64,000 nt of DNA from Akkermansia sp. (GTDB lineage Bacteria; Verrucomicrobiota; Verrucomicrobiia; Verrucomicrobiales; Akkermansiaceae): positions 3,880-67,879 of the forward strand of contig JAZOMC010000014.1 of NCBI GenBank assembly GCA_045653545.1, in the 5' to 3' direction. Shown piece after piece: positions 13,615-27,305 of the stretch (positions are counted from its first letter, which is position 1; the number at the start of each line of letters is the position of its first letter). The notes under the pieces were generated by a model. The model was not told the DNA's origin and ran no database searches. It saw only the letters and a program-made list of their open reading frames with translations. Made by a program: the position numbers and the translations under genes.

Positions 13615-14613
13615 ATGTCCGGCAACCTCACATACAAGCAATCCGGCGTCGATACCATCGAGGCACAGTCTTTCGTGAATGACATCAGCGCGCACGTTAA
13701 GCGCACGCAGAAAAACCGTCAGCTTTGCAATGCTTTCGGTCTCTTTGCTGCAGCTTACGACCTCTCCGCCTACAAGGAGCCCGTCATCGTGACCGGCACC
13801 GACGGCGTGGGCACCAAGACGGAAATTCTTTTCGATCTTGACATGCTCGAAACCGCAGGCAAAGACCTGGTAGCCATGAACGTGAACGACATTCTCACCA
13901 CTGGTGGTGACCCGCTCGTTTTCCTTGATTACCTGGGAATCTCCAATCTTGAGACTGAAAAGCCCCGCATCACCCGCCTGGTGGCCGGCATGTGTGACAA
14001 CCTGGAGAGCTGCAACTGCATCCTCGCGGGTGGCGAGACCGCTGAGATGCCCGGCGTTGTACCCGAGAATCTCGTTGAGATGGCCGGTTTCAGCATTGGC
14101 TGTGTAGAGAAGAGCCAGATGATTGATCCCTCTCAGGTTGAAGTGGGTGATGTGCTCATCGGTTACCCCAGTGATGGTTTCCACGCCAACGGCTGGAGCC
14201 TCGTGCGCCGCATTCTGAAGCAGAATCCTGACCTCCTCACCGAGGAAGAGCTGCGCAGCCTGCTGGCTCCCACTCGCCTGTACCATGACGTGGTATACGA
14301 CATGCGCAAGCTCGGCATCACCCCCAAGGCATATGCCCACATCACCGGTGGCGGCCTGCCCGAAAACCTTGAGCGTTTCCTTGGTGATAAGGGCGCTGAC
14401 CTCGAAATCCCCTACTGGGATAACGCTGCCGTACAGAAAGTGCTCACCTTCGTGGACGCTGAAGACCGCTTCCACACCTTCAACATGGGCATCGGTTGGG
14501 TAGCCATCGTGAAGCCCGAGCAGGTGGAACAGGCCTGCACAGCCGGCCCCGGTGGTACCGTTATCGGCACCATGCGTGAGGGCAAGGGCATCCATGTGAC
14601 TGTACGCAAGTAA
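13615..14613 (+). CDS. purM: Phosphoribosylformylglycinamidine cyclo-ligase
   Basis: TYKQSGVD, GTDGVGTK, AGGETAEMPG, AHITGGGLPEN, TFNMGIG. Start set at MSGNLTY. Confidence 0.95.
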   Translation: MSGNLTYKQSGVDTIEAQSFVNDISAHVKRTQKNRQLCNAFGLFAAAYDLSAYKEPVIVTGTDGVGTKTEILFDLDMLETAGKDLVAMNVNDILTTGGDPLVFLDYLGISNLETEKPRITRLVAGMCDNLESCNCILAGGETAEMPGVVPENLVEMAGFSIGCVEKSQMIDPSQVEVGDVLIGYPSDGFHANGWSLVRRILKQNPDLLTEEELRSLLAPTRLYHDVVYDMRKLGITPKAYAHITGGGLPENLERFLGDKGADLEIPYWDNAAVQKVLTFVDAEDRFHTFNMGIGWVAIVKPEQVEQACTAGPGGTVIGTMREGKGIHVTVRK

Positions 14614-14632
14614 ACGCAATTTTTAAGACTAT

Positions 14633-16522
14633 ATGTCCGCAGCAATCAGACTGCTTAAGCCGCTCTCCTATTTTGCGGAGAAGTACGGCTCGCCCGAGTG
14701 GGCCTTCAACAAGCTTTTCCTGCTCATGGAAAAGCAGCACAACCGCGGGCAAGACGGCGCAGGCATCGGCTGTATCAAGCTGAATATGCCGCTGGGAGAG
14801 CCCTACATCTTCCGCGCTCGTGATGCCTCCGCCTCTGCCGTGACGAAAATGTTCTCACAGCAGCAGCACACCCTGCGCCGCCTGAAAGACGAAGGGCTCG
14901 TACGCGGCGCGGATGCAGATACCTACAAGCGCCATTTCAACTTCGGCGGTGAGGTACTGCTCGGCCACCTGCTGTACGGCACAAGCGGAACCACAGCGGA
15001 GGAAGGCATCTGCCACCCCTACATGCGCCGCACCAACTGGCCCACTCGTACCCTCATGATGCAGGGTAACATGGGTATCACCAACATCTCCGAGCTTCAC
15101 CAGAAGCTCATCTCCCGTGGCCAGCACCCCGTCTTCGGCACAGATATCCAGACCCTCATGGAAGAGGTTGGTTATTACTTGGATGAGGCCCACACGGATC
15201 TCTACCGCCAGCTGCGTGATAAGAACGTGGATGGCCGCGAGATTCCCAACATCATCTCCGCTGAGCTGGATCTCTTTGATATCATCGGCAAGGCCAGCAA
15301 GGACTGGGATGGCGGCTACACCATCATGGGTGGCGTGGGTAATGGTGACTTCTTCTGCCTGAGAGACCCGCACGGCATCCGCTACTGCTACTACGTTCTC
15401 ACGGACGAATATCTGGCCGTGGCCAGCGAACGCGTGCCGCTCATGAGCGTGATGGAAGTGGAGGAGCACGAGGTGAAGGAACTTGCCCCGGCTAACATGA
15501 TTGTGGTGAAGTATGACGGTGCGGTGACCATCAAGGAATACACCAAGCCCGAGAAACACACCCCCTGCTGCTTCGAGGACGTGTACACCTCCCGCGGCAA
15601 TGACCCCGTCATCTACCGCGAGCGTAAGGCACTGGGTGCCAACCTCACAGAGCAGGTAGTGGAGAGTCTGGACGGCAACTTCTCCAAGGCTGCCATCACC
15701 TTCATTCCGAACACGGCTGAAGTTTCATACTATGGTCTTCTGGAAGGCCTGCGCGCCTACCGCCGCAATAAGGTAACAGAGGCCATGATTAATGCTTTCC
15801 GAGAAGGCACCATGAGTGAGGAGCTCATCAATGAGCTTATCCTCCGCCGCTGGCCCCGCGCTGAAAAGATTGCTCATAAGGACATTAAGCTCCGCACCTT
15901 CATCTCAGAAGAAAGTAGCCGTAAGCAGCTTGCTGCCATGGTGTATGACCTCACATACGGCGCTGTAAACAGCGATGAAGTGCTGGTAGCAATCGACGAC
16001 TCCATCGTACGCGGCACCACTCTGAAGATGAGCCTCCTGCGCCTTCTGGCCCGCACTCAGGCACGTAAGATTGTCATCGTATCCTCTGCCCCGCAGGTTC
16101 GTTACCCGGACTGCTACGGCATTGATATGAGTGAGATGGGCAAGTTCATCGCCTTCCAAGCAGCCATAACCCTGCTGAAGAAGCGCGGCATGTACACACA
16201 CATCATTGACGTGTATGAAGAATGTAAGCGCCAGCTCACTTTGCCGCCGGCAGAGCGCACCAACCCGGTGAAGAAGATTTACGAACCCTTCACGGATGAT
16301 GAAATCACAGCGGAGGTTTCCCGCATGGTCACGCCGGACAACAGCCCCTGCGCCATTCAGGTGATTTACCAGACCTTGGAAGGCCTTCGTGATGCAATCG
16401 AAGGTCCCTGCGGAGACTGGTACTTCAGCGGTGATTATCCGACCCCCGGTGGTTTCACTGTGGTCAACCAAGCCTTCATTCAGTGGTTTGAGAGTCGCGA
16501 CAAGCGAGACTACAATCTCTGA
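14633..16522 (+). CDS. purF: Amidophosphoribosyltransferase, long (Bacteroidota/PVC-type) form lacking the N-terminal Cys
   Basis: HNRGQDGAG, RDPHGIR, PRT motif VAIDDSIVRGTT, PQVRYPDCYGIDM, WYFSGDYPT. Confidence 0.9.
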   Translation: MSAAIRLLKPLSYFAEKYGSPEWAFNKLFLLMEKQHNRGQDGAGIGCIKLNMPLGEPYIFRARDASASAVTKMFSQQQHTLRRLKDEGLVRGADADTYKRHFNFGGEVLLGHLLYGTSGTTAEEGICHPYMRRTNWPTRTLMMQGNMGITNISELHQKLISRGQHPVFGTDIQTLMEEVGYYLDEAHTDLYRQLRDKNVDGREIPNIISAELDLFDIIGKASKDWDGGYTIMGGVGNGDFFCLRDPHGIRYCYYVLTDEYLAVASERVPLMSVMEVEEHEVKELAPANMIVVKYDGAVTIKEYTKPEKHTPCCFEDVYTSRGNDPVIYRERKALGANLTEQVVESLDGNFSKAAITFIPNTAEVSYYGLLEGLRAYRRNKVTEAMINAFREGTMSEELINELILRRWPRAEKIAHKDIKLRTFISEESSRKQLAAMVYDLTYGAVNSDEVLVAIDDSIVRGTTLKMSLLRLLARTQARKIVIVSSAPQVRYPDCYGIDMSEMGKFIAFQAAITLLKKRGMYTHIIDVYEECKRQLTLPPAERTNPVKKIYEPFTDDEITAEVSRMVTPDNSPCAIQVIYQTLEGLRDAIEGPCGDWYFSGDYPTPGGFTVVNQAFIQWFESRDKRDYNL

Positions 16523-16595: not shown

Positions 16596-17204
16596 ATGAG
16601 CAAGCAGTATAAAAAGGCTGAACTTAATAATCTTGAAGAGACTGAGCTGGTAAAGCTGAGTCAGGAGGGGATTCTCGCTGCTTTTGACGAACTGCTAAAG
16701 CGCAACATCCGCCGTATCGTCGGCATGCTCACGCAGATGCTGAAATCTGAGATGGATGCCTACGATGTGGCCCAGACTGCTGCTATCAAAGCATATCGCT
16801 CCATTAAGAGCTTTAATGGCACAAGCCAGTTCTACACGTGGATGTATACCATCGCACTGAACGAGGCCCGCAATTTCCTGCGCAAGGAAAATAAGCACCG
16901 CAACCAAACGAGCCTGAATGATGACACTAATGGCGACCCGCTGGAAAAGGATTCCCATGCTGCGGACCGCTCGCTCGTTTCCGACCCGGTGCGTCAGGCT
17001 CAGGTGTCAGACCTTAAAACAAGCCTGAAGAAAGCACTGGCTCAGCTCTCGGACGCCCACCGAGAGGTCGTCATTATGTGCGATATTGAGGGCATGAGCT
17101 ACATGGAAGTTTCACAAATTCTACAGGTACCGGAACCGACCCTACGTTCCCGCCTGCACTATGCTCACCGCTATCTCCAAAGCCTACTAAGGGATGAGAG
17201 ATAA
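16596..17204 (+). CDS. ECF sigma factor, RpoE-like
   Basis: AFDELL, DAYDVAQTAAIKAYRSIKSF, SQFYTWMYTIALN, SYMEVSQILQVPEPTLRSRLHYA. Confidence 0.88.
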   Translation: MSKQYKKAELNNLEETELVKLSQEGILAAFDELLKRNIRRIVGMLTQMLKSEMDAYDVAQTAAIKAYRSIKSFNGTSQFYTWMYTIALNEARNFLRKENKHRNQTSLNDDTNGDPLEKDSHAADRSLVSDPVRQAQVSDLKTSLKKALAQLSDAHREVVIMCDIEGMSYMEVSQILQVPEPTLRSRLHYAHRYLQSLLRDER

Positions 17205-24828: not shown

Positions 24829-24851
24829 CGCACGGCTCAAATAGACAAAGC

Positions 24852-26009
24852 ATGAAAGCGATTCTTGCACTAGAAGACGGAACCACATTCGAGGGCACCG
24901 CTATTGGCGTTGCCGGCACAGTAACCGGCGAGATATGCTGCGACACCTCAGTCATGGGCTATCAGGAACTCCTGACAGACCCCGCCTGCAAAGGGCGCAT
25001 CATGGCTATGACCTACACACTCATCGGTAACTACGGCGTGTGCGAGGAAGATAACGAGAGCGCAGCTCCTCAGGTAAACGGCCTCGTCGTGACCGAACTC
25101 GCCCGCCTCCACAGCAACTGGCGCGCCGAGGAAAGCATGGGTGCATGGCTCACCCGCCACAATGTCGTCGGCATCTCCGGCATCGATACGCGCAAGATTG
25201 CCACACTCCAGCGCAACAAGGGCGCCCTGCGCGGCTGCATCACCACGGAGCTGAGCGTTGAGGACGCCATTAAGACCGCTCAGAACGCTCCTGAACTTAC
25301 CGGCGCAGACCTCGTCAGCAGCGTCACCACCCCCACCACTTACCACTGGGAAGGTGAATCCCGCGCTTGGAAACTCCCGAACAAGACTCAGGGAGACCTC
25401 ACCACCTACACCGAGCTGCCCCCTGTAAGCTACAAGGTGGTAGTATATGACTTGGGCGTACGCCGCAGCACCCTGCGCCGCCTGCGCCAGATTGGCTGTG
25501 ATGTCACAGTGGTTCCCGCCACCACCCCCGCTGAAGAAGCCCTTTCCCTCCGTCCGGATGCCATCATCCTTTCTGACGGCCCCGGCGACCCCGCCGCCCT
25601 TTCCGCCGTAACGGCACAGGTGAAGAGCCTTGCCGGCAAGCTCCCCGTGGCTGGCATCGGCCTTGGCAGCCTTGTCATCGCCATCGCCGTGGGCGCCACC
25701 ACTCGCAAGCTCCGCGTGGGCCATCAGGGTTGCAACCAGCCCGTGAAGTCCCTCTGCAGCGGCAAGGTGGACATCACCACACAGAACACCATCTTCACCA
25801 TCGACTCCGCAAACATGCCCGAGACACTGGAGGTGACAGAGGTCAATCTGAATGATGACACCGTGGCCGCCTACCGCCATGCCTCTCAGCCCATGTTCGG
25901 CGTGCAGTACCTCCCCACTACACCCGCAGGCGCTGATGATACAACCAACTTCTACAACAGGCTCATCCAGACCATTAAGGACGTGAAAGCCGGTAAGTAC
26001 AACGCATAA
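24852..26009 (+). CDS. carA: Carbamoyl-phosphate synthase small subunit homolog, catalytically degenerate
   Basis: MKAILALEDGT.F.G, GYQELLTDP, IGNYG, GIDTR, SDGPGDP; catalytic motifs altered (GIGLGSL, QYLPT). Confidence 0.9.
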   Translation: MKAILALEDGTTFEGTAIGVAGTVTGEICCDTSVMGYQELLTDPACKGRIMAMTYTLIGNYGVCEEDNESAAPQVNGLVVTELARLHSNWRAEESMGAWLTRHNVVGISGIDTRKIATLQRNKGALRGCITTELSVEDAIKTAQNAPELTGADLVSSVTTPTTYHWEGESRAWKLPNKTQGDLTTYTELPPVSYKVVVYDLGVRRSTLRRLRQIGCDVTVVPATTPAEEALSLRPDAIILSDGPGDPAALSAVTAQVKSLAGKLPVAGIGLGSLVIAIAVGATTRKLRVGHQGCNQPVKSLCSGKVDITTQNTIFTIDSANMPETLEVTEVNLNDDTVAAYRHASQPMFGVQYLPTTPAGADDTTNFYNRLIQTIKDVKAGKYNA

Positions 26010-26027: not shown

Positions 26028-27305
26028 ATGAATACACTAGTCATTGGCTCCCAGTGGGGAGATGAAGGCAAGGGTAAGGTCATCGATTTCCTCACCGAAA
26101 CCGCTGACGTCGTAGCCCGCAGCCAGGGCGGCAGCAATGCCGGCCACACCGTCATCGCCAAGGGGCAGAAGTACGTGCTGCACCTCATCCCCTCCGGCAT
26201 TCTCTGGGAAGGCAAGGTGAACGTCATCGGTAACGGCGTGGTTATCAACCCCACTTCCCTCGTGGAAGAAATCCGCTACCTGCAGGATAAAGGCGTAACC
26301 ATCAGCCCCAAGAACCTCCTCATCTCTGACCGCGCACACGTAGTGCTGCCCATTCATAAGGAGATTGACGGCGCTCAGGAAGAAGCTCTCGGTGATCAGA
26401 AGATTGGCACCACCCGCCAAGGCATTGGGCCCACCTATGCAGACAAGGCCCGCCGCGTAGGCATCCGTATGATTGACCTCGCTGATCCCACCCGCTTGGA
26501 GAAGGTACTGAAGGCTCGCATCAAGACCGCTAACGAGGAGCTCGTGCGCCTCGGCTGGCCCGCTGCGGACCCGCAGGTTACTCTGGATGCCGTGATGGCC
26601 GCTGCCGATGTGCTGCGCCCCCACATCACGAACACCATCCCCGTTATCAATGACGCCATCAAGGCCGGCAAGACCGTCCTCTTCGAAGGCGCTCAGGGCG
26701 CCATGCTGGACATCGACTTCGGCACCTACCCCTTCGTGACCAGCTCCAACACCAGCGCCGGCGGCTGCTGCACCGGCTCAGGCGTAGCCCCCACCCGTAT
26801 CGATAAGATTATCGGCGTGTGCAAGGCTTACACCACCCGCGTGGGTGAAGGCCCCTTCGTGACGGAAGACGCAGAAATCAGCGATTACCTCCACGGCCTT
26901 GGCCGCGAGTTCGGTGCCACCACAGGCCGCCCCCGCCGCTGCGGCTGGACGGACGGCGTTGTGCTCCGCTTCTCCGCCATGTTCAACGGCTTTGACGAAA
27001 TGGCCATGACCAACCTCGATGGCCTGGACGAGCTGGATTCCATCAAGATTTGCACCGGCTATCGCATGGGTGACCAGGTGCTCGAGTACCCCCCTGCCCT
27101 CATGGAGGAGTGGTACCAGTGCGAGCCCATTTACGAAACCCTCCCCGGCTGGAAGAAGGACATCTCCTCCTGCACCACCTGGGACGAGCTGCCCGAGAAC
27201 TGCAAGGCATATGTCAAGCGCTTCGGCGAAGTCGTAGGCTGCCCCGTTGGCACCGTTGGCGTAGGCCCGGACCGCGAGCACACCATCAGCGTGCCCCCCT
27301 GTTAG
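26028..27305 (+). CDS. purA: Adenylosuccinate synthetase
   Basis: QWGDEGKGK, GGSNAGHT, IGTTRQGIGP, EGAQG..LD.DFGTYPFVTSS, GATTGRPRRCGW. Confidence 0.97.
   Translation: MNTLVIGSQWGDEGKGKVIDFLTETADVVARSQGGSNAGHTVIAKGQKYVLHLIPSGILWEGKVNVIGNGVVINPTSLVEEIRYLQDKGVTISPKNLLISDRAHVVLPIHKEIDGAQEEALGDQKIGTTRQGIGPTYADKARRVGIRMIDLADPTRLEKVLKARIKTANEELVRLGWPAADPQVTLDAVMAAADVLRPHITNTIPVINDAIKAGKTVLFEGAQGAMLDIDFGTYPFVTSSNTSAGGCCTGSGVAPTRIDKIIGVCKAYTTRVGEGPFVTEDAEISDYLHGLGREFGATTGRPRRCGWTDGVVLRFSAMFNGFDEMAMTNLDGLDELDSIKICTGYRMGDQVLEYPPALMEEWYQCEPIYETLPGWKKDISSCTTWDELPENCKAYVKRFGEVVGCPVGTVGVGPDREHTISVPPC

Follow-up and report, generated by a model that had tools for sequence, protein, structure and literature searches.

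A native Akkermansia PurF without its N-terminal cysteine, probably an ammonia-dependent phosphoribosylamine synthase

PurF, the textbook example of a glutamine amidotransferase, catalyses the step at which carbon is committed to purine synthesis. The DNA analysed here, called the window, is a stretch of 64,000 nucleotides from Akkermansia sp. (GenBank assembly GCA_045653545.1, contig JAZOMC010000014.1, positions 3,880 to 67,879 of the forward strand). It carries a purF gene whose product lacks the catalytic cysteine at the N-terminus. The features of this gene and of its upstream neighbour are as follows, numbered from the first nucleotide of the window.

14633..16522, forward strand: long-form PurF of 629 aa (open reading frame, profile and structure matches)
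14624..14626, forward strand: in-frame TAA three codons 5′ of the purF ATG (sequence)
14633..14650, forward strand: PurF start MSAAIR, with the deletion site between codon 2 (TCC) and codon 3 (GCA) (alignment of relatives)
14963..14977, forward strand: GHLLY, residues 111–115, with L114 equivalent to E. coli Arg73 of GHVRY (HMMER and MAFFT alignments)
15062..15085, forward strand: QGNMGITN, residues 144–151, in place of the family motif (L/A)GNFN(M/L)TN (alignment)
15143..15145, forward strand: D171, equivalent to E. coli Asp127 and retained (alignment)
15383..15385, forward strand: Y251, the Pro189 equivalent (alignment)
15587..15589, forward strand: T319, in place of Phe (E. coli Phe259) (alignment)
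15995..16021, forward strand: DDSIVRGTT, the phosphoribosyl pyrophosphate (PRPP)-binding loop, residues 455–463, intact (alignment)
13615..14613, forward strand: purM, encoding aminoimidazole ribonucleotide synthetase, start codon approximate (open reading frame and homology)

The window PurF comprises an N-terminal former glutaminase domain of the N-terminal nucleophile (Ntn) fold and a C-terminal type I phosphoribosyltransferase (PRTase) domain. It matched the PurFs of E. coli and B. subtilis in the PDB. The AlphaFold model had a pLDDT of 87.4 and a pTM of 0.85, and the structure search with this model gave 1ECB, 1ECF, and 1AO0 as the best matches over both domains (target-normalised TM-score of approximately 0.8, E of approximately 1e-26). 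The TIGR01134 profile matched both halves of the protein with 98 bits, below its cut-off of 350. A Cys-bearing second PurF of some relatives, purF2, also stayed below this cut-off (141 bits), so the low score is attributed to the divergence of the long-form branch and not to the deletion. The Pfam scan gave only a sub-threshold GATase_7 match, while the Cys-bearing relatives matched PF13522 and PF13537. The two-domain fold and the PRPP loop place the protein in the PurF superfamily, outside the score range of the TIGR01134 equivalog. It falls outside the class II (Ntn) glutamine amidotransferases, having no N-terminal Cys and a Leu in place of Arg73.

A sequence-only reading of the window had noted that the protein starts MSAAIRLLKPL behind an in-frame stop. 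The TAA was found at 14624–14626, three codons upstream of the ATG, and a longer purF reading frame is therefore impossible. Cys-bearing Akkermansia homologues begin MSDPLHHECGVAAIRLLKPL, and the window lacks exactly nine codons (27 nt) located between codon 2 and the AAIRLL strand, which encode DPLHHECGV in the relatives. The DNA of a full-length relative (L014) reads ATG TCC GAC CCC CTG CAC CAT GAA TGC GGC GTA GCC GCC ATT, and that of the window ATG TCC GCA GCA ATC. Among the 120 best homologue clusters, 81 start MSAAIRLLKPL (76–100% identity; 629–632 aa, one of 625 aa) and are Akkermansia sp. wherever a name is present. The remaining 39 (636–640 aa, approximately 75% identity) start MSD(P/Q/S)LHHECGVAA(I/V)RLLKPL. 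The truncated start was invariant in 36 translated genome loci; in every one a stop lay within approximately eight codons upstream, and the region 5′ of the start was short, variable, and non-coding. The alignment thus marks the missing segment as a clean in-frame deletion of the propeptide and the Cys segment, in agreement with the sequence-only reading.

Apparent absence of the Cys in published archaeal cases came from wrongly called start codons (PMC3261824), and an artefact of assembly, binning, or the start-codon call was weighed here as well. A longer reading frame or alternative start was ruled out by the TAA and by the variability of the upstream region among relatives. The junction of purM and purF is crossed by a contig from an independent DNA run (X1, 14389–14704) and by two metatranscriptome contigs (X2, 14532–14689; X4, 14562–14746), although the latter libraries may contain carried-over DNA. 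None of the three carried an insertion at the junction; X4 differed by a 1-nt deletion at 14620, in an intergenic T run. The N-terminus, for which the sequence-only reading had looked to independent data, is confirmed by these contigs, none of which restores HECG, and an assembly error is ruled out. Identical structure was found in approximately 75 species genomes and 81 protein clusters. With the stop three codons upstream and the junction covered by both DNA and RNA contigs, we regard the chance of an artefact as negligible.

Conservation in E. coli and in long-form PurFs down to approximately 35% identity extends to the Cys, the GH(L/V)RY motif, Asn101 within (A/L)GNFN(L/M)TN, and Asp127 within (S/T)D(T/S). 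Arg73 of E. coli binds the α-carboxylate of glutamine, and L114 replaces it in the window PurF. The equivalent position was Leu in all 81 truncated sequences, Arg in 35 of the 39 Cys-bearing relatives, and Arg in all distant long-form representatives shown. The loss of this arginine (GHLLY for GH.RY), claimed from the sequence alone, therefore held across the truncated clade. N146, equivalent to Asn101 of the oxyanion hole, is retained in the window PurF, as is D171. Over the truncated clade the Asn101 equivalent was N in 40 sequences, D in 33, and T in 8, against N in 39/39 relatives, and the equivalent of Asp127, which binds the α-amino group, was D in 51, A in 27, and N in 3. These counts indicate that the two positions are no longer constrained in the clade.

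The NRGQDGAG motif and all PRTase motifs were invariant in the truncated clade. The PRPP-binding loop, likewise described as intact by the sequence-only reading, is so at residues 455–463, and D455, D456, S457, V459, R460, G461, and T463 were invariant in a 74-sequence alignment. Two further positions set the clade apart. The Phe259 equivalent was Thr in 81/81 truncated sequences and Phe in 39/39 relatives, Phe being invariant in all other PurFs compared. The Pro189 equivalent was Tyr or His throughout the truncated clade, and Pro was invariant in every other PurF compared, including that of E. coli. These replacements may remodel the former ammonia channel. Degenerate sites were also seen in six long-form sequences outside the clade (P0152, P0161, P0162, P0165, P0202, and P0232), with HEGG for HECG (P0152), HPSG, GH(V/L)LY, or absence of the Cys segment. 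Loss of the glutaminase site appears to recur in the long-form PurF family.

A PurF match was found in 150 of 154 species-level Akkermansia genomes. Approximately 75 of these matches aligned from residue 1 (truncated form, checked by translation in 36 of them) and the others from residue 3 (full-length form). The full-length group includes complete genomes of 2.7–3.5 Mb with 63–64% PurF identity. In the maximum-likelihood tree built without the N-terminal segment, the 42 sampled truncated sequences all fell into one clade (SH-aLRT 100), which is joined by two further lineages in a group with 97% support. One of these consists of intermediates (P0099, P0100, P0112, and P0113; 636 aa; purF locus at L120 10001–11911), which keep HECG and have Arg73 replaced by Leu, Asp127 by Gly, and GNFN by GNFG. 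The other, the G173 lineage, has HECA on a long branch; the PurF Cys and Arg73 are still present in the G173/G169 lineage. Because Cys-bearing sisters already carry the Arg73 and Asp127 replacements, the tree fits a stepwise decay of the glutamine site in which the Arg was lost before the nucleophile was deleted. The window purF is a native, vertically inherited gene of one Akkermansia sub-lineage.

Selection was estimated in the truncated clade by the pairwise Nei–Gojobori method (685 pairs; the pairs are non-independent and dS is near saturation). The dN/dS was 0.088 for residues 3–290 (Ntn domain) and 0.077 for residues 291–629 (PRTase domain), not higher than the 0.13–0.18 of the full-length relatives. 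These ratios are robust evidence of strong purifying selection on both domains, and decay of the whole Ntn domain is ruled out by the value of 0.088. The truncated PurF is not a decaying pseudogene, and its dead domain persists in folded form.

The genome of the window (2.27 Mb, 48 contigs, 91.5% complete) was searched for a second purF with the TIGR01134 profile, with E. coli PurF by tblastn, and with a purF2 query, and none was found. It encodes purD, purH, purL (with its glutaminase domain), purM, purN, purE, purC, and purB, so that in this 91%-complete assembly the single purF locus is the sole candidate for step 1 of a pathway that is otherwise present. Fifty-eight of the approximately 75 truncated-clade genomes had no second purF, and approximately 25 of the 58 have a completeness of 95% or more. 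Four GTDB species genomes encode a PurF 98–99% identical to that of the window; purF2 is absent from three of them and present in the fourth, G149. The 11.6-kb contig that carries purF2 in G149, whose PurF is 98% identical, had no blastn match in the assembly of the window.

We consider it likely that the window PurF is an ammonia-dependent phosphoribosylamine synthase, encoded by a native gene and with its glutaminase half permanently switched off. The 27 nt lost in the in-frame deletion encoded the propeptide, the Ntn nucleophile Cys, and the next two residues. The PRTase domain would condense PRPP with free NH3 to give phosphoribosylamine, feeding the otherwise complete purine pathway. The former glutaminase domain may be retained since it would pack against the PRTase site and help to form it; this structural role is suggested by the conserved fold and the low dN/dS. 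Direct use of ammonia would also spare the ATP consumed by glutamine synthetase for each nitrogen. The free ammonia would come from the animal gut, where it is abundant, and the route is plausible because gut ammonium reaches tens of mM (PMC5902328). A precedent is the E. coli enzyme, in which Cys1 mutants (Cys1 to Ala or Ser) lost the use of glutamine and kept that of ammonia (Mei & Zalkin 1989, as cited in PMC3261824), the state proposed for the window PurF.

A parallel change was found in the small subunit of carbamoyl-phosphate synthetase, CarA, which lies further along the window:

24849..26009, forward strand: CarA with its triad replaced (GIGLGS, QYLPT) (alignment to E. coli)

In E. coli numbering, Cys269 is replaced by Gly, His353 by Leu, and Glu355 by Thr. 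CarA and PurF were compared in 28 sampled genomes and in three copies of a second carA, carA2. The CarA Cys was absent in 15/15 genomes with truncated PurF and in G173 and G169; the His was absent in all of these except G137, and the Glu in most. All 12 genomes with intact PurF had CarA with GICLGHQ and HPE; PurF and CarA of A. muciniphila are intact. The association between loss of the CarA triad and a truncated or decaying PurF was thus complete in the sampled genomes. Since the G173/G169 lineage retains the PurF Cys and Arg73, CarA loss may have preceded PurF loss. On the contig encoding P0112 of the intermediate lineage, carA was not found within 10 kb of purF. Two triad-dead carA matches (L096, G169:C25:112714–113865; L108, G176:C80:48793–49941) contain an internal TAA, which may mark further decay toward a pseudogene; G176 also holds an intact carA2. 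In the window, carA is followed by purA (26028–27305).

The change is confined to these enzymes. GuaA, PyrG, and PurL keep their Cys-His-Glu triads in the genome of the window, which rules out a general loss of amidotransferases. Each of the 16 genomes tested, whether its PurF was truncated or full-length, had a gene of the glutamine synthetase III (GS-III) type (C9:11040–13094 in the genome of the window), which rules out loss of glutamine synthetase as the cause. With these triads and GS-III in place, glutamine is still made and used. E. coli AsnB, GlmS, GltB, and GltD had no tblastn match (E<1e-8) in the genome of the window, and the search thus detected no further amidotransferase of class II (Ntn) there. 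The residues indicate that only two committed nucleotide-synthesis steps gave up glutamine: the PurF step, which serves purines, and the CarA/CarB step, which serves pyrimidines and arginine. Direct ammonia use at these two steps could be the ecological reason.

Some relatives carry an accessory island with gltB (glutamate synthase large subunit), a 710-aa glutamine synthetase (GS)-like gene, purF2, carA2, nadE, and carB2, for example at L078 (G175:C15:99000–112000) and also at L077 and L079–L082. The purF2 product is 572 aa long, starts MSDALKHECAVAMVRL, and has GHLRY, GNFN, and the Asp127 equivalent intact. The score of CarA2 exceeded the cut-off of the glutamine-hydrolysing small subunit, and the triad was intact in 3/3 copies. 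A genus-wide search found purF2 in 18 of the 154 genomes, namely 17 with truncated PurF and G173, and in none with intact native PurF and CarA; the island occurred only where the native CarA is triad-dead, and it was not found in the 91%-complete assembly of the window. The closest purF2 relatives outside Akkermansia, purF2 being the only island gene searched, were annotated as Lentisphaeria or Victivallales (58–68% identity). In genome pairs whose native PurFs are 75–77% identical (dS 1.0–1.7), purF2 was 94–96% identical (dS 0.57–0.69). In genome pairs compared for both genes, dS was 0.18–0.69 for purF2 and 0.8–1.7 for the native gene (purF1), while the purF2 of G173 was only 62% identical to the others. 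Because purF2 dS is several-fold lower and the G173 copy is divergent, a later lateral arrival is suggested. We infer that the deletion predates the island, which probably moved laterally among members of the clade. The island resembles a later addition and not a redundancy under which decay became possible.

The opposite order of events is unlikely but deserves consideration. An ancestor might have gained purF2 and carA2B2, after which the redundant native copies decayed under relaxed selection, the island-less genomes being purine- or ammonia-dependent survivors. This accounts for the presence of purF2 only where the native CarA is triad-dead (17 genomes and G173) and never beside intact native PurF and CarA. 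It fits poorly with the dS values above, which suggest later and repeated arrivals, with the divergence of the G173 purF2, and with the strong constraint that still acts on the native purF. It differs from ammonia-dependent synthesis in cause only and not in the present activity of the enzyme. Less probable still is a pseudoenzyme that makes no phosphoribosylamine and serves regulation or scaffolding, such as nucleotide sensing or partnership with PurD, with purines obtained by salvage or through purF2. The dead glutaminase site, the intact purF2 of 17 clade genomes, and the purines available for salvage in the gut would agree with such a role. Against it, the motifs of the PRTase domain, the PRPP loop among them, are invariant, and the domain has a dN/dS of 0.077; purF still adjoins purM, the pathway downstream remains complete and no other phosphoribosylamine source was found for it, and 58 of the approximately 75 genomes lack purF2.

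We give little credence to a continued dependence on glutamine by another route, either with Ser2 as a new nucleophile after removal of Met or with a separate glutaminase acting in trans. Ntn hydrolases with an N-terminal Ser or Thr exist, and MSAA is invariant in 81/81 sequences. The MS and the AA are also present in the full-length ancestors, however, so this conservation is inherited and not new. In the alignment, Ser2 falls past the position of Cys1 by two residues. None of the truncated sequences keeps the Arg73 equivalent, and those of Asn101 and Asp127 are variable within the clade. The E. coli C1S enzyme had no glutamine activity (PMC3261824). No partner gene for a glutaminase in trans is evident beside purF.

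Several points weigh against ammonia-dependent synthesis by the window PurF. The NH3-dependent activity of canonical PurF has a millimolar Km, and the flux may be marginal. A new role would likewise explain why the dead domain is so strongly conserved. The literature search found no enzymology for long-form PurF, the window protein included. The remaining purine pathway was examined in the genome of the window only. The sequence-only reading had counted an intact purF elsewhere as evidence against itself; none was detected by profile or tblastn in the assembly of the window, but 17 of the approximately 75 clade genomes hold an intact purF2, and a 91%-complete assembly cannot strictly exclude a second copy.

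A broader proposal is more tentative, and we judge it somewhat less likely to be right than wrong. The sub-lineage, approximately half of the species-level genomes of the genus, may have rewired both PurF and CarA/CarB to free ammonia. The mobile glutamine module (gltB, the GS-like gene, purF2, carA2, nadE, and carB2) would then be a switchable backup for low ammonia, and the Phe259-to-Thr and Pro189-to-Tyr/His replacements would remodel the channel for uptake from solvent.

Compared with known systems, the window PurF shares the two-domain fold, the NRGQDGAG motif, the PRPP loop, and the pathway position with the PurFs of E. coli (1ECF/1ECB) and B. subtilis (1AO0/1GPH), EC 2.4.2.14. It differs from them in being long-form (approximately 630–640 aa), in naturally lacking the nucleophile and Arg73, and in the relaxed Asn101 and Asp127 positions. 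Mammalian CPS1 is an ammonia-dependent carbamoyl-phosphate synthetase whose glutaminase domain is dead. It resembles the window PurF in having an amidotransferase-fold domain without a nucleophile and in using free NH3, and it parallels the triad-less CarA of the window. It is a different enzyme with a class I fold, and is relevant to the companion event only. The AsnB-derived β-lactam synthetase and carbapenam synthetase keep a class II (Ntn) N-domain without the catalytic Cys. These enzymes gained a new reaction, whereas the window PurF presumably performs the same synthase reaction and differs only in the nitrogen donor.

The nearest likeness is to the crenarchaeal PurF′, a natural PurF homologue without the Ntn Cys, encoded near purine genes and only hypothesised to depend on ammonia (Brown et al. 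2011, PMC3261824). PurF′ always stands beside a true PurF and has the Cys replaced by Ala or Val (PMC3261824), whereas in Akkermansia the Cys-less protein is the native orthologue and, in most cases, has no second copy beside it. The Akkermansia loss also belongs to another PurF subfamily and arose by a recent deletion inside a single bacterial genus, where its place on the tree can be found. A natural Cys-less PurF is thus not new as a kind. New here is an independent and recent loss in the long-form branch, placeable on the tree and affecting the native orthologue of a prominent gut genus. Other new elements are the truncated PurF as sole copy in most clade genomes, the surviving intermediates, the matching CarA loss, and a compensating glutamine-module island limited to the affected lineage. 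Our search of the literature on Akkermansia amidophosphoribosyltransferase found nothing on a Cys-less PurF.

The locus offers a natural experiment within one much-studied gut genus, in which Arg73 would have gone first and the nucleophile next, with selection still strong. The CarA loss and an island that restores both glutamine enzymes suggest that the lineage adapted to the supply of ammonia, in place of a random decay. Closely related truncated, intermediate, and full-length forms of PurF1, together with purF2, make the ammonia hypothesis for Cys-less PurFs easily testable. Metabolic models and defined media are also concerned, since Akkermansia other than A. muciniphila could require high ammonium and could differ from A. 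muciniphila in nitrogen handling.

The genes around purF were also inspected. The purM stop is at 14611–14613, leaving a gap of 19 nt to the purF ATG, and the two genes probably form one operon; the purM-purF order was also found in relatives. Directly 3′ of purF lies a gene for a sigma factor of the extracytoplasmic function (ECF) type (16596–17204, forward strand), and the order purM-purF-ECF sigma factor is kept in the intermediate lineage (L120).

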